IMG/VR virus record: IMGVR_UViG_2541047728_000005
Length of the DNA: 47,804 bases
From: a virus
Lineage: Duplodnaviria; Heunggongvirae; Uroviricota; Caudoviricetes
Direction: 5' to 3' (one strand)
Shown in pieces: positions 4,207 to 47,576 of this stretch (position 1 is the first letter of the stretch; each line of letters starts with the position of its first letter). The notes under the pieces are model-generated. The model was not told the origin of the DNA, did no database searches, and was given only the letters and a program-made list of their open reading frames with translations. A program made the position numbers and the translations under genes.

Positions 4207-6991
4207 AACTTAATCTCCGTTGTTGGAACATATGAGCACTCAATTTCTTCTCAAAATCAGAATATCCCGCATCTAATGCTCTTTTAGCTGCCGCCTCAGT
4301 TTCCTTTGGTGAACCAGCCGGAAGATTGATTACAGGTGAATAGGTTATTCCACCAGTCACAGCGTTAACGTTCTGGCGAGGTCCAGAAGTCCCAGCGGCA
4401 GATATCCCGTGAGGTGATAAATTTGATTGCCCGAACTTGCTTGCTATTGCATTCTGTAAGCTGTTATTCCTGCTAACACCTGATGCCAGAGTAGTCATTA
4501 TTGCACCACCTGACTTTGTTAGCTGTGAGAATGGACCTTTTTTCGCGTCAGAGAACGGTAAATACTCACGTACAGAAGAAAAAACGCCTTTCACTTCATT
4601 AATTAAAGCATTTGCTTTTGATTTTATCCCAGTGATTAACGTCTCAATTATTTTTGCGCCTGACTCACTCCAGTTTATTCCAGATAAATAAGTCGTTACA
4701 GATTGGAATGCTCTTATAAAGAGTCCAACTGGTGAAAAACGCATAAAAACAGATACCAGTGTATCTATGATTTTCTTTCCTGTTTCGCTCCAGTTAATGC
4801 CAGAAAGGTAATTTGTTGTAATTTTAAATGCTTTAATTAAGAACGGAAGCGGAGACATCCATTTAAAAGCACTAATTAATGTACTGTAAATTCTTACTCC
4901 TGCCGAACTCCAGTTTATGTTGGAAAGATAATCCCATGCTTTACCAAACATAGATATAATCCATCCATTGAGGTCAAAGTTTAAGATAAAGTTTTTTATA
5001 GCCTCAAATGATTTAACTGTATATTCCTTAACAGAAGGCCAAACTCTGACAGCATAATCTCTGATCTTATCCCAATTCTGATAGAGCAATATTCCTGCGG
5101 CAACCAGCGCAGATATAGCCATCTGAATCCACCCGAAGGGTGTTAGCTTTGTCGCTACAGATAAAGCCAGCATAGCTACCCTACACGCTATAACCACACT
5201 TTTCATGGTTAGAAACGCACCTGCCGCCATCACTATCTGAGACACAAAATTGGGGTTGTTAGCTACAAATTCACTAATTTTTGTAATCAGCGGAACCAAA
5301 ACACTAAGCGCGGCATTCAAAGCAGGTTGCAAGGCCTGACCAAAACTTAATGATGCATTGCTAGCCTGAATACGTAATTGTTTCAATCGCTCCGCATTAT
5401 CTTTCGTTATGTTGGCAAAATCGCGGTCAATAACAGCACTTCCAGCTCCAAGAGATGTTGCTTTGATTCTCTGGTATTCCTTCCAGTTTTGAATCATCGG
5501 ACGAACAAAGTTCTGAACCTGCATATCGCCAAATAGTTCACCAAGTAACTTCTGATCTCCGTTCTTAGTCATTTTCATGACAGAATGCATTGCAGCTTCG
5601 AATGGATTCTTCCCTTTTTTCTGCGCTGTTGTAACAATTTTATATAAATCTACACCGAAATTTTTCTTTGCTTTTTTTAGTGTTTCAGGGGAAAGTATTT
5701 TTGCCAAAAAGTTGTTCATATTATTAGCAGCCTCATCCGAAGTTGCAGCCCCCTTGCGAGCTATCTGCAAAGCTGCACCCATCGTCGCGGCTGCTTCTTT
5801 ACCTCCCATTTTTAATGCCTGGAACTGAGCACCAAGCACAGGAAGATTTTTGGCCATATCTTTAAATTCAAAGTTCCCCTCTTTCCCTGCCTGAACCAGA
5901 ATCCCCATTGCAGACTTCATTTGAGATGGATCAATCTTCAATGAGTCACTTAATGTAAATGATGCTTTCGAGACATCGAGGATATCAGAGCCAGTAGCTG
6001 TAGCTGTTCGCCCAATAGTTAGTAGATTCGCCTGAGCCTCTTTATAATCCTGCCCAGCAGCGACGAGAAAACCCTGAGCGGCCTGAATATCAGATGCAAA
6101 CTGGTTGGTAGCCGTTCCGGTAACAAGCATCGCCTGCCCCATCGCCTGAACTTCTTCCGGCTTCATATCTGCCGTAAGACCAATCATTTTGTTTTCACGA
6201 TTGAAATTTGCTGCATTGTTAGCAGCAGCAAATGCACCAGCCGCTACAGCACCAGTTTGTAATCCTGACCTTACAAGTTGACTCTTTGCCTCACCAAGAT
6301 GCTCTCGCTTCAATTCACGCTGCCTTTCCAACGCGCGGTTTAACTCCTCCTGAGCACGTTTTACTGCAAGAACATTTTTCCGTGCTTCAGCCAACGCATT
6401 TTTATAGCTGTTAATTTTATCAATACGTTGTTTTTCTAATGCCCGGTTAAGTTCCTCCTGCTGTTTTTTCACTTGCTGAACATTTGCTCTGGCTAAAGCC
6501 AAAGCCGTTCTGTAGCGGTTAACCTGCTCAACGCTACGGGCCTGAGCCTCACGATTACGATCAATGCTGGCTTTAAGCTCTTTCTCTCTTGAGGCCAAAG
6601 CTCTGGCAGATGTATCAGCTCCCTGATAGGCAGACTTTAAAGCGGCCAGTTCTTCACGCTGAGAACGTAGTGATGCTCGTAAATTTGATGAATGTGTTTT
6701 TGCCTTCTCAAAGTCACGAAGCATCGCTCTGGTTGGATTGGCCGTGTTTTTTATTTGCTTCTGTAACTCTTCAACGCGAGCGGCAGCTTTATGATATTCG
6801 AGGGCAGTCTGTCCAACCTTTACTTTTACAGATTGTAGCTTTTGAATTTCCCCATGTTCTTTCGTTAATCCAGCAAGCTCTGCATTTAATTTAGCAACAG
6901 CCTGATTAGCTGTAGTAAAACTTTTGGGGAGAGAGGCGGCAACTTTGCCGCCAATTTCAAAAGCCAGCTTAAAGTTCTTATTGCTGGCCAT
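4199..6991 (-). CDS. Tail tape measure protein
   Basis: 930-aa ORF; N-terminal coiled-coil with repeated AxLxRxxEE heptads, central hydrophobic segments, three tandem ~37-aa repeats ending in YLSGINWSE; follows chaperone gene. Confidence 0.85.
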   Translation of the reverse strand: MASNKNFKLAFEIGGKVAASLPKSFTTANQAVAKLNAELAGLTKEHGEIQKLQSVKVKVGQTALEYHKAAARVEELQKQIKNTANPTRAMLRDFEKAKTHSSNLRASLRSQREELAALKSAYQGADTSARALASREKELKASIDRNREAQARSVEQVNRYRTALALARANVQQVKKQQEELNRALEKQRIDKINSYKNALAEARKNVLAVKRAQEELNRALERQRELKREHLGEAKSQLVRSGLQTGAVAAGAFAAANNAANFNRENKMIGLTADMKPEEVQAMGQAMLVTGTATNQFASDIQAAQGFLVAAGQDYKEAQANLLTIGRTATATGSDILDVSKASFTLSDSLKIDPSQMKSAMGILVQAGKEGNFEFKDMAKNLPVLGAQFQALKMGGKEAAATMGAALQIARKGAATSDEAANNMNNFLAKILSPETLKKAKKNFGVDLYKIVTTAQKKGKNPFEAAMHSVMKMTKNGDQKLLGELFGDMQVQNFVRPMIQNWKEYQRIKATSLGAGSAVIDRDFANITKDNAERLKQLRIQASNASLSFGQALQPALNAALSVLVPLITKISEFVANNPNFVSQIVMAAGAFLTMKSVVIACRVAMLALSVATKLTPFGWIQMAISALVAAGILLYQNWDKIRDYAVRVWPSVKEYTVKSFEAIKNFILNFDLNGWIISMFGKAWDYLSNINWSSAGVRIYSTLISAFKWMSPLPFLIKAFKITTNYLSGINWSETGKKIIDTLVSVFMRFSPVGLFIRAFQSVTTYLSGINWSESGAKIIETLITGIKSKANALINEVKGVFSSVREYLPFSDAKKGPFSQLTKSGGAIMTTLASGVSRNNSLQNAIASKFGQSNLSPHGISAAGTSGPRQNVNAVTGGITYSPVINLPAGSPKETEAAAKRALDAGYSDFEKKLSAHMFQQRRLSFG

Positions 6992-23562: not shown

Positions 23563-24144
23563 CTATGCCACTTGCCAGAGAGCATCATGCAACTGGATAC
23601 CTCCATTGCACTGGTTGCCCCAGCCATGCCAACCATCAGGTAAATCACCGCGAGCAAACAGCTCAATACGAGGAACATCACCTAACAGCCTTACCAGCTT
23701 GTCACGAACCACATCAGGCTTCCGAGAATGCTCCAGACGAGGCGATGTAAACGACTGAATGATCCCCGCATCAAGGCGGGTCGGCAATTTGCCTTTTACC
23801 GCAAACAAGCAATCTTCACTGTTTGCACGAGTCATATGCCCCATCCCCAGCTTATCTGGTTGTCGGCTACCACATTTGTTCCATGTGAAGCCCTTCATGG
23901 TCATAAGCCTGAATCCCCATGCTTTCACCACCAGCAACGCTTCTTCTGGCTGAGTCGGAACCCACCACATGGCCAACAAACACGATTCAGGATTAGCAAG
24001 CTGCCAGACAGGAATACGAGCAATATCCTCAGCTTTCATCGTTGAATACTTAAAACCAGCTCCACGATTCCCATCCTTACACTTATCTTTGTATTCCCAG
24101 GGGGGATCTGCATAAATCAGATTAAACAATGCAATTGCCTCCAT
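23563..24144 (-). CDS. DNA N6-adenine methyltransferase, MT-A70 family
   Basis: 193 aa with N-terminal catalytic motif IYADPPWEY. Confidence 0.8.
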   Translation of the reverse strand: MEAIALFNLIYADPPWEYKDKCKDGNRGAGFKYSTMKAEDIARIPVWQLANPESCLLAMWWVPTQPEEALLVVKAWGFRLMTMKGFTWNKCGSRQPDKLGMGHMTRANSEDCLFAVKGKLPTRLDAGIIQSFTSPRLEHSRKPDVVRDKLVRLLGDVPRIELFARGDLPDGWHGWGNQCNGGIQLHDALWQVA

Positions 24145-24452
24145 GTTAGTTGTGCCTCCGGCGCTTATCTCCGGCAGTCATAACGCTGGCCAGCTCTACA
24201 GCAGACGCAACGAAAAGGGCACTAACCAGACTGATTAATGCCCTTGCCTGTTGTGTGCCGGATATCGCCCGACAACGCTGTTTTGGTAACACGGCTACAG
24301 TTCCGTGCCGCTCCAGCTTTTACCCCTTTGCGGATAACAGGCCCTGCCTGTAACTTAGCCCCACGTTCGCCCGAAATGCGCACCAGGCACGCATAAAGAT
24401 GAGCACGAAGGAAGTAACTCCACCGCGCTTATCTTTATGTGTGAGAGTGAAT

Positions 24453-24528
24453 TGGTGGCCCCTACCGGATTTGAACCGATGACCGTGCGATTATGAGTCG
24501 CCTGCTCTAACCACTGAGCTAAGGGGCC
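24453..24528 (-). tRNA. tRNA with CAT anticodon, tRNA-Ile2 (lysidine)-like; could alternatively be Met
   Basis: Minus-strand GGCCCCTTAGCTCAGTGGTTAGAGCAGGCGACTCATAATCGC...GGTTCAAATCCGGTAGGGGCCACCA; cloverleaf with 7-bp acceptor stem, encoded CCA; 5' 42 nt match my recollection of E. coli ileX. Confidence 0.85.
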
Positions 24529-24539
24529 ATATTTGATCT

Positions 24540-24621
24540 GTTTGTCTGGTGTGGCGCCGCGCACGAAAATCCCAGCCAATAAATTCAGGATTTTTGGGCG
24601 CGGCGGCATATCAGACAAACA
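24540..24621. repeat. Nested inverted repeats flanking upstream side of tRNA gene
   Basis: gtttgtctg...cagacaaac (9 bp) enclosing gcgccgcgc...gcgcggcg and aaaatcc...ggatttt. Confidence 0.5.
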
Positions 24622-24667
24622 TGGTTGATGCGTGCGCCCATGAGAAAAGCGCATAGAATGTTGTAAC

Positions 24668-24700
24668 TATATATTTATATAATTATAGAAATATATATTA
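24668..24700. promoter_or_regulatory. TATA-rich palindromic repeat array (same family as parA-upstream repeats)
   Basis: tatatatttatataattatagaaatatatatta between spanin genes and tRNA. Confidence 0.45.
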
Positions 24701-24907
24701 CTTGGGGCAGTTGATTTCCCATGCCCTGTTATGAGCCAGAATATCTTTCTTTGTCTGGCGGTCCATAACATCGATATCGTGATCAGTCAGGTAGATGGGC
24801 TTTACCCAATCACAGGCGGTATCAACCACCACCGGGACGCTTCCACGACTCCCGCAGCTCGCGATCAACATCGTCATCAGCCATATGGTTAACACTCTGC
24901 TGTACAT
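24698..24907 (-). CDS. o-spanin (Rz1-like outer membrane lipoprotein)
   Basis: 69-aa ORF with signal peptide and lipobox LIASC; overlaps 3' end of i-spanin gene. Confidence 0.6.
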   Translation of the reverse strand: MYSRVLTIWLMTMLIASCGSRGSVPVVVDTACDWVKPIYLTDHDIDVMDRQTKKDILAHNRAWEINCPK

Positions 24908-25100
24908 TGCCCACCTCTTTTGTCACTTCTATACGCCGCTCCGCAGTGGCTTTTACGGCGGCTGCATTCTCATTTATGCGCTGCTTTTCAGCTTCATCTT
25001 CGGCCTTTTCTCGCCCCTTCATACGACCAAAACCAAACGCGCCGAATGCAACCAATATAATTGTGCCAATAAATGACAAAACGGCCTTCAAACCAGTCAT
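24822..25100 (-). CDS. i-spanin (Rz-like)
   Basis: 92-aa ORF, N-terminal TM helix then charged coiled-coil; directly downstream of endolysin. Confidence 0.6.
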   Translation of the reverse strand: MTGLKAVLSFIGTIILVAFGAFGFGRMKGREKAEDEAEKQRINENAAAVKATAERRIEVTKEVGNVQQSVNHMADDDVDRELRESWKRPGGG

Positions 25101-25639
25101 ACCACCACTCGCTCTTTCATCCAGCCGTAGACAAACGACTCATTCGCCTCGCGCTTCTCCGCCAGCTCCAGATAGCGTTCGCCCTGCGTACAGTTCAGCG
25201 ACGTCAGCATCACCCGTTCGCCGTCTTTTCCCCGATTCCCAAGATAAGCACGCAGCGCATTAATGGTACGTGGACCGATTCGTCCATCTGCATCCAAATC
25301 GGGATACAGCTTCCCACGCAGATTGAACACATTCAGCCAGCGTTGAAGCATTTTGGACGCCACTGTTGGCCCCATATTCACACCGGTATCACACAGCTCT
25401 GCGGCAATATCAGAGGATAATGCGGCCACCTGATCAAAGCGTGGTCCGTACCAGTAATCAGCCTCAAGGATTTCTAGTGCCTGTTCGCGGGTTAAATCGC
25501 GCATATCGCCACGGTATCCATGAGCACGGGCAGTGTTCTGAGTAATGCCCCACTTTGTTGGGCCTCCCTTGTCGTCAGGGTGATCCACATAGCCGCCCTC
25601 TTTTCCAAGAATGCTGTTAAAAATCTCATCTTTGGTCAT
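25097..25639 (-). CDS. Endolysin, GH108 N-acetylmuramidase with peptidoglycan-binding domain
   Basis: 180 aa; motif GGYVDHPDDKGGPTKWGIT characteristic of GH108 family. Confidence 0.8.
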   Translation of the reverse strand: MTKDEIFNSILGKEGGYVDHPDDKGGPTKWGITQNTARAHGYRGDMRDLTREQALEILEADYWYGPRFDQVAALSSDIAAELCDTGVNMGPTVASKMLQRWLNVFNLRGKLYPDLDADGRIGPRTINALRAYLGNRGKDGERVMLTSLNCTQGERYLELAEKREANESFVYGWMKERVVV

Positions 25640-25958
25640 GATTAAATCCTAATGCGTCAACTATCCGCGCCAGATTGCCCCTGAAATACAGAACAACGAT
25701 GCAGATAATCAGATTTCCAATAACCACCAGCCAGTGGGATTCTTGATAAAGACCGAACACATAACGGAAGGGAACATTGGCGTATACAATGACGTAGATA
25801 TAAGCCAGAAAGGAAACAAATGGACGATGCCTGGAGTCTTTCCGTTGATAAAGCATCAGCGCCATTACTATTACTGTGCAAAGCACCGCATTAATCAGTG
25901 CTGACGGGTCACTGCTTACCATTTGAACCCCCTCCACGTAAGCGGGAAAGCATTCCAA
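25626..25958 (-). CDS. Membrane protein in lysis cassette (holin/antiholin-like)
   Basis: 110-aa ORF with three hydrophobic segments between holin and endolysin. Confidence 0.45.
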   Translation of the reverse strand: MECFPAYVEGVQMVSSDPSALINAVLCTVIVMALMLYQRKDSRHRPFVSFLAYIYVIVYANVPFRYVFGLYQESHWLVVIGNLIICIVVLYFRGNLARIVDALGFNHDQR

Positions 25959-40029: not shown

Positions 40030-40329
40030 TCAGATGTTAAACGCTATTCGTTTTCCTGTGGGAAGCTCAACATCCAGGCTTAATTTGCCTCCCATAGCTT
40101 CAACGTAACGCTTTAATGTCGCCAGCTTTAAATCATTTCCGCGCTGCTCCAGCTTTGTTACTGCTGGCTGGCTTATACCCATCGCCTCAGCAACCTGTTT
40201 TTGTGATAACTGGAGTTCTTCACGCATCATCTGCAAGCCGACCTCAAGAATCATCTCATCTGCCATTTCTTTAATTCGCGCCTGGCTTTCAGGTGAACGG
40301 CTGGCAATCGCCTCATCTAATGTTCTCAT
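40030..40329 (-). CDS. higA: HigA-like antitoxin (XRE HTH)
   Basis: 99 aa; HTH LSQKQVAEAMGISQPAVTKLEQ; directly downstream of and overlapping toxin gene. Confidence 0.7.
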   Translation of the reverse strand: MRTLDEAIASRSPESQARIKEMADEMILEVGLQMMREELQLSQKQVAEAMGISQPAVTKLEQRGNDLKLATLKRYVEAMGGKLSLDVELPTGKRIAFNI

Positions 40330-40682
40330 TACTTGCTCTCCAGTGTGTTCAGATGTGCTGCAAACTCATCCTCAGCTATACGCACCAGTTTTTCATAAAA
40401 CCGCTTATCGTTACTTTTGTCTCCTGCACAAAGAACGATGGCCCGGCGAATCGGATCGAACGCATAAAAGGCTCTTATCGGACGGCCAGAAAACTGAACG
40501 CGAAGCTCTTTCATATTTTTGTACCGAGAACCTTTTACGGTATCGGCATATGGCCTGGGTAACTCAGGTCCGTAAACCTGTAGCTTTTTCAAATCAGCCA
40601 AAACCTTTTCCTGAAGAGCGTCTTCTTGCTCATTTAGCCAGTCGTCAAATCGCTGGCTAAAAAGTACCGTCCACATGCTCAA
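40329..40682 (-). CDS. higB: HigB-like toxin (RelE/ParE superfamily, Gp49-like addiction module killer)
   Basis: 117 aa; toxin-first order with XRE antitoxin; pattern ...DWLNEQ...KNMKELRVQFSGRPIRAFYAFDPIRRAIVLCAGDK. Confidence 0.7.
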   Translation of the reverse strand: MSMWTVLFSQRFDDWLNEQEDALQEKVLADLKKLQVYGPELPRPYADTVKGSRYKNMKELRVQFSGRPIRAFYAFDPIRRAIVLCAGDKSNDKRFYEKLVRIAEDEFAAHLNTLESK

Positions 40683-41211: not shown

Positions 41212-41507
41212 ACATCTGTTTTGTTATCAATGAAGATTAACCCTAACCCAGCGAAGTAACACAGCAGCGCCCAGGCTGCATACGGAATGCTGGATCTGGA
41301 TGTGGACTCCTTTAACATCTGCCAGTTGCGAACATTGCGACTATCTTTTAAGCCTAGTTTTTTGGCTAACTGCGAGCCGCTCATTCCGGTCAGGCCAATG
41401 ACTGCCCGAACTTCTCCACATGTAGGAGATTCCCATTCATCCGCTTTTTTTAAACAAGCCGGATTCAACATTTTTAAAACAGTATCTTTATCCATAACCA
41501 TCTCCAT
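41208..41507 (-). CDS. Putative HTH DNA-binding protein
   Basis: 99 aa with IGLTGMSGSQLAKKLGLKDSRNVRNW HTH-like segment. Confidence 0.4.
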   Translation of the reverse strand: MEMVMDKDTVLKMLNPACLKKADEWESPTCGEVRAVIGLTGMSGSQLAKKLGLKDSRNVRNWQMLKESTSRSSIPYAAWALLCYFAGLGLIFIDNKTDV

Positions 41508-41859
41508 TTATTATATCTACGATGGTAGGAAATCTTTTCCTATGTGGCAATAGAAATTTACTACATTGCGTATAAGACAAGTTTTCTATGTCTAATAGGA
41601 AATGATGTTTCTTACATTTTATCGCGTTCTGATGGCTACTGTGTGCGTATTTATCGACGTTTATTGATAAGGCTCGCCCCTTCCTCCTGCAAAGCCCGGC
41701 CGTAGGCCTTATTTCGGCCTTATATAAATTGATTTTGTATAGTTCGAAACGTGCCGTTTCGAAAAGGATGATCAGGCTGCTCCATGCCTCCGGCAAGTGC
41801 CGGAGGAGGTATATTTGAGCGTAGCGACTCGAACCGGCGCGAGCTTTAGCTCGCTGCAA

Positions 41860-42138
41860 GGGCGAACATATTCACAGGCAAAGCCTGCGTAAGTTAAATA
41901 AAGAAAGTCTTAATAAAAGAAAGTGATTTTGCATTTATTTGTTTAGTGCATCTATTATAAAAAACCATTTGCATATACATATCAGAACTGTGGATAACTT
42001 TATTAGCCGATGCCTGTAAAGGCGATATTTTTGCTGTGTTCAGGTTTAGAGAAAATTAATTTAGATTGTTTTTTGAACAGATATTTTATTGCGACGTAGA
42101 TAATCCTCCGGTAAAACCGGATTCATCATTCAGGTGGG
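41860..42138. other. Candidate plasmid origin region downstream of repA (AT-rich, DnaA box TTATCCACA at 41989..41997 on minus strand)
   Basis: Perfect DnaA box consensus; location immediately 3' of repA as in IncFII oriR; flanking hairpins at 41746..41762, 41781..41804, 41841..41856. Confidence 0.45.
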
Positions 42139-43119
42139 TTAATGTTGGAGTGATTTCCAGGTCTTTCTTAACCTGTTATAACGCTGCTCAACGAGGGATC
42201 GTAAATATGCAAGGTCAGCACCAGGATACATGCCATCAGCAAATTCCTGACTAACCTCTCTGGTGATTTGATGACGAAGTTCGGCCTCTCCCTTTTCCCG
42301 AACAAGACGCGCAGCTCTCTCCGCTGCTTTCTGTTTTGCCTTTATCTCTCTGGCCGTCTTCCTCTGACGCCATACATTCTCCATCTGCTCCTGAATAACA
42401 ATACGCTTATAATCAGCCTCCGTTATCGCTTTTTTAAGCCGTTCGCTATTCTTCGCATTGAAGTAATTAAGTTTCTGGCTAACCGCACGTCTCCATGCTT
42501 GTTCAGTAATACCAACGGTTTCCAGCAGTTGATCACGAATCTCTATTTTCGCTGGCCAATACTGTTTATTCACCCGATCCCAGCGACGTTCATAATCAAT
42601 AAAACCTAACGCTTTCAGTTGCGACAACGCCCTTGTACAGCGCGTTATAGACTTGTTCCCAGCTTCGGATACGGTAGACAGGCCGCAAAAATCAGCCAAC
42701 GCCTCAGCACTAGCCAGAACCCGCTTAGAAATGATGTTTACATGGTGCAAAATCGCAGCGATCACAGCATTAATCGCCCGACGACGATGCTCGTTTATCC
42801 GGCGCTTCCGCTCTGACGGTTGATTAACGTAGAACGCAACCTCACACGTAAGATCACGCCCATTAATGCGCTGTAAAGCATCAGATAACACCAGCGGCAG
42901 CTTGTGCGTATGGTGCTTTGGAGGCTGGAACTCCGGCGACAAATTACAAACGTAAGCTGAACGTAGAGACGGCATTGGTCTATCCATATGTTCGCTCTTG
43001 CGTCCACGGAAAACCAACGTATAATGGGAGTTGTCGAGGCGCCCATGGATTGTTGTTGTTGGTTTTCCGTGGATGTCGCAAGAAGCCCGCAGATTTATCT
43101 GCGGGCTTTTTGTTTCCAT
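42139..43119 (-). CDS. repA: Replication initiator RepA (IncFII RepA1 family); true start possibly internal Met at 42987
   Basis: Segment RRRAINAVIAAILHHVNIISKRVLASAEALADFCGLSTVSEAGNKSITRCTRALSQLKALGFIDYERRWD closely parallels my recollection of R100/R1 RepA1. Confidence 0.8.
   Translation of the reverse strand: METKSPQINLRASCDIHGKPTTTIHGRLDNSHYTLVFRGRKSEHMDRPMPSLRSAYVCNLSPEFQPPKHHTHKLPLVLSDALQRINGRDLTCEVAFYVNQPSERKRRINEHRRRAINAVIAAILHHVNIISKRVLASAEALADFCGLSTVSEAGNKSITRCTRALSQLKALGFIDYERRWDRVNKQYWPAKIEIRDQLLETVGITEQAWRRAVSQKLNYFNAKNSERLKKAITEADYKRIVIQEQMENVWRQRKTAREIKAKQKAAERAARLVREKGEAELRHQITREVSQEFADGMYPGADLAYLRSLVEQRYNRLRKTWKSLQH
43031..43112 (+). ncRNA. CopA-like antisense RNA candidate in repA leader
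   Basis: Plus-strand TTGCGT-N16-TATAAT (42998..43025) followed ~60 nt later by 11-bp GC hairpin agcccgcagat...atctgcgggct and TTTTTGTTT (43084..43115), antisense to repA 5' region. Confidence 0.5.
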
Positions 43120-43585
43120 ATCTGGTCACTTTCCAACCAGACACCCACAATCATAACCACGTTACGTGGTTTTAAGAGAACTCTACCACAACACTTTCGG
43201 TCATGCACGAAGTCTCTCACTGATCGAACGATAATCCACCAGTAAAAGGATCTAAATTGGATCTCGTTTTGCGAGCATCATACTACTGGCCTAACTCCAG
43301 TCAATGATTCCCAGCCAGAAACCTGCGGTAAACTCATCGTTCAGCAATATGCTGTCCGGCTTCAAAGATAAGGTGACATCATCCCTTAACAGCGCGGCCA
43401 GTTCAGTTAAAGGGCTGTTCTGATTTAATGCTGGCCACTCATACCTGGTAATAAGTGGTCAGTCTTAACACTCACTATTTGATTGCACCCGTGTTGACGA
43501 TTTGTTACTGGATATCAGACACGCTGGATAGCCAGTAGAAACATACCATTAAAATTATTACAATAATTGGTCACATGATTATCTT

Positions 43586-44149
43586 ATGCTGAATAATAAA
43601 GATATGAATATTAATGAACTTAAAGACTGTATTCACTATGAAGTAATCGGTAGCGAGCGTCCTTTCTCCTGGCGAAAGGCAATTGTTCGCGCAATAAAAC
43701 ATAGAAGGGTTCGTTATTTATTTTGGTGGCGCATAGCCAAATACCTTTTTGATAAAGGCGGATACTGTCGGAAGATTGCGGGAAAAATAGAACGTTTCAT
43801 TCTTGATAAATATAATGTAACAGTCCCTTTAACTGTAAATATAGGGAAAGGCTTTGATATTTCTTATCTCAACAGTGTTGTTATCGGTCACAAAGTAACA
43901 ATCGGTGAAAATTGTTCAATTAAGCCCGGAGTAACTATTGGACTTCGCGGGGAATTTAATGATATGGATATTGTTATAGGGCATAATGTGACCATTGGTT
44001 GTAATGCCACCATTCTTGGTGGCAAAGTGCGTATAGGAAACAATGTCACAATAGGTGCTCATGCATTGGTATTGCATGATATTCCTGATGATTCAACATT
44101 CATCACTAAATTTCAGTCTGAAGTTATCTGCTCGTCCTCCCGAACATAA
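43586..44149 (+). CDS. Hexapeptide-repeat (left-handed beta-helix) acetyltransferase, moron-like
   Basis: 187 aa with tandem [LIV]-G-x-x-x-x-I-G repeats ([21 protein letters not shown]...[32 protein letters not shown]); AT-rich; convergent with and overlapping 3' end of tfa. Confidence 0.8.
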
Positions 44150-44730
44150 CCCTGATTCATCAGCTCTGGCCATACGATATCCGGAGCTGTACTGGTGTCA
44201 ATTCTACTCACTAATACTCTGTATTTTCTCCAGGAATCCAGTTGTGAATTTTCCTCGTTTGTTGCTATTTCAAGATTAACTGCATCCTGCAGAATTGCGA
44301 TGTTATCTGTTGCTTCCTGGATCAACCTTGCCTTTTTCTCTTCCGCTTCCCGTATCCGAAACAGTTTTTCTGCTTCCTCATCATTCACCCAGGATACGCC
44401 GTCCCACTTCTGATACTCCCCTGCTGGCGACAACCAGGTGACATTCTCTGGTAGCGGTCCGAGTTCAGAAATAAACAATGCGTCCCCCGACGCCACGTCA
44501 TAGACCGTTTTACCACGATGGTCTTCAACAATATTCCACGATTCATTTTCACTGTTAAAAACTGCCACAAAGCCAGCAGGAATTTCCGGTGGGGCGATAT
44601 CTGTAGAATTAGCTGGCAGCCCTGTATGAGGTGGAATATATGCGTCACCTTCACCAATAAACTCATTAGTTCCGGCCAGCAGGTTATAAATTTTTACGGT
44701 ACGTGATTGTTCACTCATTCTGAATGCCAT
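44113..44730 (-). CDS. Tail fibre assembly protein (Tfa family)
   Basis: 205 aa beginning [58 protein letters not shown], closely resembling E. coli prophage Tfa proteins; TAATG overlap with fibre gene. Confidence 0.85.
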
Positions 44731-47576
44731 TATGCAAGCCTCACAATATAATTAAATGCGATGTTTTTAACGGTGTTTTCCGCGTTACCAGCAGCGTTAA
44801 CGGTGATGGTGTGTCCATGTGAACCAATCGCAACAGAGTGCGTATGAGCGCCAATACCAACAGTGTGTGCATGTGCCCCAGCACTTGTAGCGGTACCTGA
44901 TACTGAGTGGGTATGTGCGCCAGAAGAAGGCACAGTTCCATTCCCCACCACCGTGCCACTTGATGAACCATCCAGCCAGTCGAAATTCATACCGCCACTG
45001 TTTGGTCTCCTTAATGGAACGGTATGAGTATGTGCGCCAGCACTATTTGCAGTACCAGATACATTATGGGTATGTGCACCTGTGTTATTCGTTGATTTAG
45101 TACCGTAATCAAACGACGATGTGGTTTTCGTACCCAAATCCGTATTGGATGCGCTGGCACTGTGGGTGTGCGATTTAATGCCATCCTGTTCCTGAGACAA
45201 TACGGCCCGACCACTGGCGGGTTTGCCCTTGATTGTCCAGCCGCGCATATCTGGAATAACACCAGAAGGATAGGCAATAGCCAGTTTCGGATATGCTGCC
45301 TTATCAAACGTCTGCCCCAGCATGATTGCATAACCTGCAGGTGGCGTATCTGATGGCCACGGCAGCGGAACACCTGGCGGAAACGCTTCAATATTTGCCG
45401 AGCCGTCAAATTTTACGCCGTTAATTGTCCTTGCCGTTTTCAGCTTTGTTGCTGTAGCAGCATTGCCGGATAGTTCGCCTGAAAGACCACCGCTGAATGT
45501 CTGTTTCGCCATCCATGTCTGAGCTTCGTCGATAATTGGCACACGTCTTGTCGTGATCGTGCGGCTTCCCGGATTTCCTGAAATGCGAACCATAAAAAAG
45601 CGGTAGTTGGCTTTACTTACAGTGCTGCGCCATACATGCATTGAGCGTCCCGAACCAGAATCATCACTCGGACCGACTGAGATGTTTATCAGGTTGCCAT
45701 CAATGACGCCCCAGTCCATACCGTCGGGAATATTGGTCATGTTATCAAGCCGAACGGTTATCAGACTGCCCGGCACAAAATCGTAGGTCTGCCAGTCCAG
45801 GCTGGTGAGCTTTGCCACAGCACCGCCGATACCCAGATTCAGGGGAAGTGAATACGAGGTGTAGACTTCCCGCCATTCGCTCCATGAGCTGCCGGTAAAG
45901 ACGCGCTCAAAGGTGCGGCCTTTAAGGGTTGTACCTGTTCCGGCAGTTGTATAACGCTGCCATACATTAACACCATCAAAGCGCCTCAACACCTCCAGAA
46001 TACCGAGGACTGTCACGCCGTTTCCGTCCAGTATTGGACCGTTGGTCGCTTTACCTGTAACGCTGTAAATACCTGGTGAGGTTACATCATTCAAATCACC
46101 GTCGTAATAACGACTCTCTGACTGATGACCGACTCTTAACCACGGTTCCCACTGCGGATTTGATGCATCCCAGCTTGCCGCAAGACAGCGGACATACATA
46201 TTTCCACGGCGAGTGGTATAACGTTGCGTTCTTCCATAATTTCCGCCTTCGAGGATCTCAAGCATCCCCTGAGCAAAGCCGCCTTCCTCTGGATAATTGC
46301 GTTCATATGAAGCTATAGCTGAGCTACTGTTACGCCATAAACCAAGATGCTCGGCGGCTCCAAGCGTATTCAGGTCTATAGTCGTACTCAAAGGGCGGGT
46401 AGCAGATTGAGTGTGACGCCATACGCCCCACGGACCATCAGTGCCATTCCACTTATTGGCGAGTTTACGCATGTATACATTGCCGTCTCTCGTGGTAAAG
46501 CGTTGCGTACCTGCAAAATTGCCGGCAGCAAAAACCTCAAGCACACCGACAGCATTATCTTCCGGGAAATTTTTCTCCAGTGTTGCGTTGGTGGATGTTG
46601 CTTTAGACCAGATACCTGAATAAGCCTTAACAGGACCAAACGTATTCAGATCAGCATCAAGCGGCATTTCGCCATTGTTTTTCATAAACGTCAGGCTGGT
46701 AACGCCAACATTGTCCAGAAAAGCTGATTTATCCTGGATATCTGCACCGTTCTGATTTTTCGCCAGACGTGAATTTGCGTTGTCATTTGCTGCCTTGACC
46801 GCTTTTGGCGTTGCCGCCTGCGTTTCAGACGTACTGTTAGTGGCACTACTGAGCTGAACAATCCCTTTTCGCGCCGTGGTAGCGTCCTGTGCGGTGTATT
46901 TAGCGTTAGCCAGGTCATATGCAGCCTTAACAGCCTTAGGCGTCGCTGCGAGCTTTTCAGACGTGCTATTGGTGGCATTACTGAGTTGAACAATGCCTTT
47001 TGATGTTAAAGTTGCATCAGGATGATTACGTGATTGCTCATGTTTTACAATAGCTTGCTTAAGCCGCTTTGCTGAAACAGCCAAGGAATCATCTGTACCT
47101 GCATCAATTTCTTGTTCATTAGCAAATCTTGCTACTCCAACAACAGTTTCGGTTGCGGGAGGGTTAATAAACTCAACATCACCAAATGTAATGTTTTTAG
47201 TATCAAGATTTTTAATTGCTATATCACTTGATATTAAAGCAATTGTAGAAGATGCTTTATTTATTATTACTTGTTCTTGCGAGTATACAGCAAACAATGT
47301 TCCTTTATTTGTATACAAACCTATTGTATGGACAACATACTCATCTTTACTATCATCCTTCGCAGTTACATGAATGGTATCAGGAGAAACGACTTTGCCT
47401 CCTATTGTGGTAAGTCGCTTTATTTCATCTGTTATTTTTGTTTGTGTGGTTGATGTGGCATAATATCTACTACCTAAACCAACAGAAACGATCTCAACTT
47501 TATTTGTTCCAGTCTTGTTGGCATTAACCAGCGCCTTACGCCCGGCGTCAGTCATCGTAAATAATAATTTACTCAC
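44730..47576 (-). CDS. Tail fibre protein (P2 gpH / lambda Stf-like) with C-terminal HxH repeat tip
   Basis: 948 aa, GTG start with AAGGAA RBS; duplicated [27 protein letters not shown] motif as in P2 gpH; C-terminal GAHTHxV repeats. Confidence 0.85.

Follow-up and report, generated by a model that had tools for sequence, protein, structure and literature searches.

The window analysed here, a stretch of 47,804 nucleotides from an Escherichia coli phage-plasmid, carries next to its tail fibre genes a plus-strand gene coding for a homologue of left-handed beta-helix (LbH) acyltransferases. Phage-borne LbH acetyltransferase-like morons located by receptor-binding genes are a known kind of accessory gene. 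What is new in this case is that the catalytic His has been replaced under strong constraint and that the gene belongs to a cassette that has taken the place of an invertible tail fibre switch. The reading that we favour, with a probability of roughly 45%, is that of a moron expressed in the lysogen and co-inherited with the receptor-binding module, whose product modifies a precursor of a surface glycan, with a chemistry or a substrate that differs from those of its canonical relatives. The features of the region are listed in Table 1.

Table 1. Features of the LbH gene region and of the adjacent backbone, in coordinates of the window.
Feature	Position	Strand	Remarks
IncFII-type repA	42139..43119	-	Divergent from the LbH gene; backbone
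DNA-invertase (hin) remnant, last 32 nt	43301..43332	-	Backbone; rest of the invertible segment replaced
gpU-like P2-like tail gene, 3'-terminal fragment	43333..43423	+	Left end of the cassette; RefSeq pseudogene fragment
Stable hairpin downstream of the gpU fragment and upstream of the LbH promoter	43430..43463	+	The 91-nt stretch 43390-43480 folds with z = -2.8
Candidate sigma70 promoter, TAGAAA-17 nt-TACAAT	43536..43564	+	Consensus match and conservation; TATAAT in the L002 and L109 alleles
LbH (hexapeptide) acyltransferase-like gene	43604..44149	+	181 aa from the likely start; longest ORF, from 43586, 187 aa
3'-3' overlap of the LbH gene and tfa, 37 bp	44113..44149		
tfa, tail fibre assembly chaperone, 205 aa	44113..44730	-	Caudo_TAP, E=1.1e-39; domain ends at residue 189
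Tail fibre gene, 948 aa	44730..47576	-	44730 to ~46800, cassette; from 46783, backbone-like

The region between positions 43400 and 44300 is 99.8-100% identical to sixteen non-mobilizable E. coli plasmids of ~47-50 kb and 99.9% identical to 'Escherichia phage vB_EcoM-613R2'. An annotated relative, NZ_CP032259, codes for a full myovirus morphogenesis set together with repA, parA and toxin-antitoxin genes, and the ~47.8-kb window is therefore a phage-plasmid. The Yersinia phages vB_YpM_39, vB_YpM_41 and vB_YpM_44, sibling phages isolated as virions on Y. pestis EV76, have a 100% identical large terminase.

The backbone harbours several other features. The RepA family match starts at residue ~53-58 of the 326-aa repA ORF. 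Antisense to the 5' end of repA, positions 43002-43115 (+) gave weak Rfam matches to Thr_leader (31 bits) and to the terminator part of CsrC (23 bits); this hairpin- or terminator-like structure could be the copy-number-control antisense RNA of the IncFII-like replicon. Near repA, at 40030-40682 (-), the gene for a RelE/ParE-family toxin (117 aa) overlaps that for an HTH antitoxin (99 aa), and the pair is a HigBA-like addiction module. The single tRNA gene, at 24453-24528 (-) and with anticodon CAT, is called tRNA-Met by ARAGORN and in the Yersinia phage record and tRNA-Ile by RefSeq in NZ_CP032259, the latter call implying a lysidine-modified CAT. NZ_CP032259 (L001) also contains, at 23930-25899, an IS21 element of about 2.1 kb with istA and istB, and the 2117-bp difference in length suggests that the window is devoid of it.

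A sequence-only reading of the window had proposed a plus-strand ORF starting at 43586, more AT-rich than its neighbours and overlapping the 3' end of tfa by about 37 bp. The ORF is present, and the overlap is exactly 37 bp long. Most likely, translation starts at the second ATG, since this is the start used by PGAP in the near-identical plasmid NZ_CP032259, the homologues begin at this position and the first ATG is missing from the 90%-identical L109-type allele. The LbH gene has a GC content of 0.377 and a GC3 of 0.30, compared with a mean GC of 0.445 for the window, 0.456 for tfa, 0.471 for the fibre gene and 0.478 for repA, and with a GC3 of 0.40-0.41 for the neighbours. It is thus indeed more AT-rich than they are, but as it lies at the 12th percentile among same-sized windows across the element, it is no extreme outlier. 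Its description as the only plus-strand gene in this part of the element holds from ~39383 to the end of the window according to the RefSeq annotation of NZ_CP032259, with the exception of the 91-bp gpU pseudogene fragment, which is on the plus strand as well.

The protein matches Pfam Hexapep (PF00132) with 47.5 bits, for a cutoff of 27. Its AF2 monomer model, built from a 99-sequence alignment, has a pLDDT of 91.2 (an earlier 20-sequence alignment gave 69 and was set aside) and shows a left-handed beta-helix preceded by four N-terminal helices, which corresponds to a short serine-acetyltransferase-type architecture. The proposed membership of the LbH acyltransferase family is thus borne out. 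In homology and structure searches, the nearest PDB entries were serine acetyltransferases, both by sequence (E=2.8e-12) and by fold (Foldseek TM 0.70-0.77, probability 1.0). The CysE structures 6wye, 8i04 and 1t3d, with an LbH domain that follows helices, are the closest solved relatives. Unlike CysE, the window protein is devoid of the serine-binding residues, of the Asp-His dyad and of the C-terminal tail; it is a short serine-acetyltransferase-fold homologue, not CysE.

All matches in the Pfam scan were of the Hexapep type. SATase_N (PF06426), which a Proteus CysE matches at 1.5e-37, was absent, as was Acyl_transf_3 (PF01757), the domain of the AT3-type proteins Sf6 Oac, phiV10 Oac and NeaT. 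No family of the PADLOC defence models was found at E<=0.01. PHROG 2154 (function unknown) matches the protein over its full length, and this end-to-end match indicates a recurrent phage family. A literature search returned no functional study of the protein, only passing mentions (PMC9603915, PMC6456863).

The best NCBIfam matches are the WcaB- and EpsC-type models, at 62-81 bits for equivalog cutoffs of 150-196, all of them thus below cutoff (EpsC, 81.2 vs 150; WcaB, 62.4 vs 196 and 60.1 vs 194.65). Proteins of these types have ~160-190 aa and a similar architecture. WcaB, of the colanic acid system, keeps the catalytic His, whereas the clade of the window protein does not. WcaB- and EpsC-type loci serve polysaccharide biosynthesis, whereas the window gene sits in a phage tail-fibre cassette. 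In bacterial chromosomes, relatives of the window protein that have the catalytic His (His-type) adjoin GT17, GT2, GT9 and Wzy_C genes and cysE. Judging from these neighbours, the family fits the sugar or polysaccharide acetyltransferases of LPS or O-antigen loci, and the presence of glycosyltransferase and Wzy genes makes a sugar acetyltransferase involved in lysogenic conversion the best reading. The acetylation of sugars or surface polysaccharides, which had been suggested for the window gene, therefore gains support from the His-type relatives and loses some from the Tyr found in its own clade at the position of the catalytic His.

Two sets of loci deserve mention in their own right. In Proteus spp. 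(L009-L012, L016, L019, L022, L026 and L060), a His-type member is found directly downstream of a genuine cysE gene (277 aa, with SATase_N) and precedes trmL or a GT2 gene (~5156-6560 of these loci). Proteus is a chromosomal home of the family, beside the enzyme whose name it usually, and wrongly, bears. In a Buttiauxella MAG (L041, 5387-6564), two family members of 182 and 187 aa are coded in tandem, which suggests local gene duplication in some genomes.

Tyr94 (187-aa numbering) aligns with the catalytic His158 of CysE. Altogether, CysE residues Asp92, Asp143, Asp157, His158, Arg192 and His193 correspond to R, T, S, Y, M and D in the window protein; the known residue positions agreed with the CysE reference sequence used for this mapping. 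The equivalent of Asp143 is T, K or V across the clade. Among 113 homologues retrieved by the protein search, the His column contains His in 96 sequences, Asn in 3 and Tyr in 14, the latter all within the query clade. The 136 family genes collected from genomes and viral contigs comprise 95 with D/E and His and 41 with T and Tyr. His is also found in 117 of a third set of 124 aligned sequences, most of which represent 50%-identity clusters of a library of 1.84 billion proteins, and Tyr is confined here to the query clade and one unrelated representative. Overall, the catalytic His is kept in about 85-95% of the aligned homologues. Only four clusters of the 1.84-billion-protein library reach E<=1e-30, and the phyletic range of the Tyr clade is therefore narrow. 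Sequences with Tyr are found down to 53% identity, including the metagenomic sequences P0007-P0014 and that of Hafnia phage yong2, and all relatives at <=49% identity have His. As the Tyr-type sequences are monophyletic in 79/200 NJ bootstraps, we do not claim a single origin for them.

The positions that define the Tyr clade (78, 81, 84, 94, 101, 113-114, 121, 127-128 and 136 in the 187-aa numbering) are concentrated in segments of the CysE active site (equivalents 142-148, 158, 177-178 and 191-192). By this pattern, the acceptor pocket has been remodelled in the clade of the window protein. The hexapeptide coils lining the CoA groove are well conserved. Comparison with the 90%-identical allele gave a dN/dS of 0.079 (dN 0.044, dS 0.57); with relatives of 53-75% identity, dS is saturated and dN is 0.15-0.45. 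The LbH gene is under strong purifying selection and is not decaying. A catalytic His was present in each LbH acyltransferase whose crystal structure was available by 2011 (PMC3046976). With Tyr in place of His and T, K or V in place of Asp143, ordinary O-acetyl transfer cannot be assumed for the window protein, and the His-to-Tyr swap together with the rebuilt pocket implies that the substrate or the chemistry of the clade must differ from those of its canonical relatives.

These observations bear on the main rival to our reading, a non-catalytic pseudoenzyme. In that case, the LbH scaffold would bind a nucleotide-sugar, acyl-CoA, a host protein or a related enzyme and act by sequestration or inhibition. 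The replacement of both the His and the Asp143 equivalent argues for such a role, as do the rarity of the Tyr state and the clustering of the clade-specific substitutions in active-site segments in the face of strong purifying selection. Against it speak the well-conserved coils of the CoA groove, and no partner protein is evident. In addition, LbH N-acetyltransferases that lack the base exist, namely QdtC and WlbB, and loss of the His is therefore no proof of inactivity. We hold the pseudoenzyme to be doubtful, if still a serious contender.

The LbH gene is part of a ~3.5-kb cassette, from 43333 to ~46800, that comprises a remnant of a gpU gene, the promoter, the LbH gene itself, tfa and the distal two thirds of the tail fibre gene. 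This cassette is ~94.5% identical across three unrelated backbones, those of the window, of a P1-like 99-kb plasmid (L002, matching 43516-46708 of the window) and of a chromosomal P2-like prophage (L003, matching 43333-46869). The homology with L003 starts exactly at 43333, within the 3' end of the gpU-like gene of L003, of which the window keeps 91 bp. The hin and gpU remnants thus lie back to back and form the exact left junction of the cassette. The sibling phage vB_YpM_39 shares the backbone and lacks the LbH gene; its match with the window stops at 43332 and resumes at 46783, and the phage harbours an intact invertible fibre segment, with the fibre gene, tfa, a convergent tfa', an Sv' fragment and hin (L171, 18835-23874). 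These two junctions and the homology with L003 indicate that a P2-like cassette replaced the invertible segment and its invertase, and by the same homology the cassette came from a P2-like prophage. The LbH gene now occupies the slot of the tfa' of the sibling, which explains the convergent arrangement.

Invertible fibre segments of the Sv-U / U'-Sv' type, with Gin, Cin or Hin, are found in the same genome slot in Mu, P1 and P2-like phages. In contrast with these, the window retains only the 32-nt invertase remnant and has a fixed fibre tip and the LbH gene instead. In the P1-like JL22, cin-Sv'-U'-U-S is replaced by 'sacF' and tfa, 'reason unknown' (PMC9603915), and the JL22 protein is a 36%-identical member of the family. 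An invertible host-range switch has thus apparently been replaced wholesale by a fixed fibre and an accessory gene more than once, and the host range of this family of phage-plasmids evidently varies by module swapping. Among 5426 complete E. coli genomes, 185 contain the cassette sequence, which lies in chromosomes at 160 places and on plasmids at 60.

The cassette history qualifies the earlier description of the gene as a moron. In several respects, the description is apt: the LbH gene is on the strand opposite to the fibre operon, its GC content is 0.377 compared with 0.46-0.48 around it, a conserved sigma70-like promoter block precedes it and it is variably present among shared backbones. 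However, it did not insert on its own but came within the cassette. All the cassette contexts share a conserved block of approximately 70 bp ahead of the LbH gene; the homology with the cassette of L002 starts 20 bp upstream of the -35 hexamer, and that with the L109 allele begins at the -35-like hexamer. The hairpin located upstream of this promoter may be the terminator of the tail operon of the donor phage. An Rfam scan of 41500-44800 revealed no described regulatory RNA for the LbH gene. Its only strong match, a full-length one to IS009 (RF02111), lies inside tfa, at 44189-44387 (-), and has 81.5 bits for a gathering threshold of 117 (E=4e-18); this probably reflects homology to the prophage tfa region behind that 'sRNA' rather than a separate RNA gene.

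According to our preferred reading, that of a surface-modifying moron, the LbH gene would be transcribed autonomously, probably in the lysogenic or plasmid state. Its soluble, presumably trimeric product would catalyse in the cytoplasm the acyl-CoA-dependent modification, possibly with acetyl-CoA, of a sugar or a sugar-lipid precursor of a surface glycan. The changed surface of the carrier cell would amount to lysogenic conversion and might affect phage adsorption, possibly to the point of phage exclusion, and the gene would travel with the fibre tip in a ~3.5-kb host-range cassette. The presumed role in altering the cell surface or the receptor is plausible. Against this reading, the fibre tip belongs to the widespread Stf/gp37 type, and its receptor may be a protein.

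There is a precedent for the proposed logic in NeuO, the LbH-type polysialic-acid O-acetyltransferase of the E. coli K1 prophage CUS-3 (PMC3046976; PMC13001214), whose target is a surface glycan used by phage as a receptor. Like the window gene, as predicted from its sequence, neuO is a prophage-borne accessory gene for a soluble member of the LbH acyltransferases. In contrast, NeuO belongs to another LbH subfamily (OatWY-related) and is not among the best 60 of the 75 PDB sequence matches of the window protein. It also has a catalytic His and a Trp, and a phase-variable heptanucleotide repeat at the 5' end of its gene, whereas in the window protein Tyr takes the place of this His, and a search of 43300-44800 found no tandem repeat. 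[quoted passage not shown] This is the same P2 slot as in the donor context of the window gene, and both are AT-rich, on the opposite strand and predicted to code for acyltransferases. However, NeaT is a membrane protein of the AT3 family (PF01757) and is not homologous to the window protein; it has virulence phenotypes.

We also considered the association of the family with fibre genes. In phages, the members of this family, which comes from Enterobacterales, occupy moron sites, mostly right behind tfa and convergent with it. A convergent tfa gene is found immediately downstream in 61 of the 136 family loci, namely 40 of the 41 Tyr-type and 21 of the 95 His-type loci, and the other contexts are heterogeneous. 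The convergent arrangement with tfa is also present in Hafnia phage yong2 and in Citrobacter phiNP, in the latter after dinI-hicAB. The LbH protein of phiNP is 40% identical and its fibre tip 62% identical to those of the window; this C. rodentium phiNP member has been listed as a 'fitness' gene (PMC6456863). In the P2-like ESSI2_ev015, the family member follows the integrase gene. Some Tyr-type genes are found away from fibre genes, beside a transposase gene (L164) or between UDG and an IS3 fragment (L170). Accordingly, the link with tfa may have a functional basis, or insertions may simply be tolerated at the end of the late operon.

A functional link is at the heart of an explanation that we find rather unlikely. 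It considers the Tyr clade as a neofunctionalised LbH protein, either a His-less acyltransferase, working for instance by N-acyl transfer or by a Tyr/Asp-assisted mechanism, or a pseudoenzyme, which would be co-inherited with the fibre because it acts on or masks the receptor pathway of that fibre. If this were true, the 3.5-kb unit would be a self-contained 'infect and then exclude' cassette that displaces invertible fibre switches in unrelated phages.

A late function in the virion, by which the protein would modify or mature the tail fibre or its chaperone, appears improbable. The persistence of the linkage with tfa and the fibre tip over the deep divergence seen in phiNP speaks for it, and so does the P2-like donor, in which the LbH gene is downstream of the tail operon and has the same direction. 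Nevertheless, in the window the gene is opposite to the fibre operon and has its own putative promoter and an atypical GC content, and relatives occur in non-phage glycan loci and beside an integrase gene. Moreover, sibling phages with the same backbone yield infectious virions without it.

The gene might also be mainly regulatory, convergent transcription over the overlap damping late tail-fibre expression, or being damped by it, through antisense or interference effects. This would be consistent with the 37-bp overlap, with the tight convergent spacing common in the family and with the terminator prediction, which gave no site between the LbH gene and tfa. In the related cassettes, however, the two genes are separated by +3 to +49 bp. 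The tfa genes of these relatives end with ...DIVWPEL-stop, whereas that of the window lacks this stop and extends for 15 more codons into the LbH gene, beyond Caudo_TAP. As the overlap results from a missing tfa stop codon and is absent from the relatives, designed antisense control is unlikely; judging from these alleles, the overlap is allele-specific and neither ancestral nor a conserved regulatory design. The suggested antisense interference with tfa is thus weakened as a form of control, and simple convergent transcription is possible, given the predicted lack of a terminator. The strong constraint on the LbH protein sequence and the family members located far from any tfa also argue against a mainly regulatory role, which we regard as very improbable. 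Two further ideas about the overlap were discarded. The C-terminal tail of the LbH protein does not derive from antisense tfa, since the 90%-identical L109 allele has the ...SSHT tail without overlap, and the tail is therefore native. Similarly, a 37-bp overlap in the metagenomic contig L168 was rejected as a sign of conservation because the convergent ORF is not tfa-like; either this overlap is coincidental or the call is spurious.

RefSeq and GenBank call the LbH protein 'serine acetyltransferase', and its best matches by sequence and fold are indeed CysE structures. A genuine CysE-like enzyme that boosts cysteine synthesis in the host is nonetheless hardly credible: the CysE models score far below their cutoffs (TIGR01172, 71.5 vs 210.65; PRK11132 / NF008349, 44.7 vs 397), the protein has 181 aa vs 273 for CysE and no SATase_N, and the six key residues are replaced. 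The residues and the cutoffs effectively refute the CysE identity. No more tenable is a cargo gene for a Vat/CatB/Maa-type enzyme that acetylates small molecules such as xenobiotics or antibiotics, as the NCBIfam models for Vat, CatB, Maa and LacA match weakly (E 1e-5 to 1e-8, 25-33 bits vs cutoffs of 300-475) and only over generic hexapeptide coils, the fold and N-terminal helices are of the serine acetyltransferase type rather than of the Vat/Maa type, and the catalytic His is absent.

About 3% of the complete E. coli genomes carry the LbH gene, which occurs in clinical phage-plasmids, P1-like plasmids and P2-like prophages under a database name that its sequence contradicts. The constrained change from His to Tyr provides a tractable case for how LbH acyltransferases shift their chemistry or become pseudoenzymes. 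If the protein modifies a surface glycan, the gene would be a mobile factor that determines serotype and phage susceptibility and is transferred along with the receptor-binding module, and this would bear on phage therapy and on the ecology of phage-plasmids.
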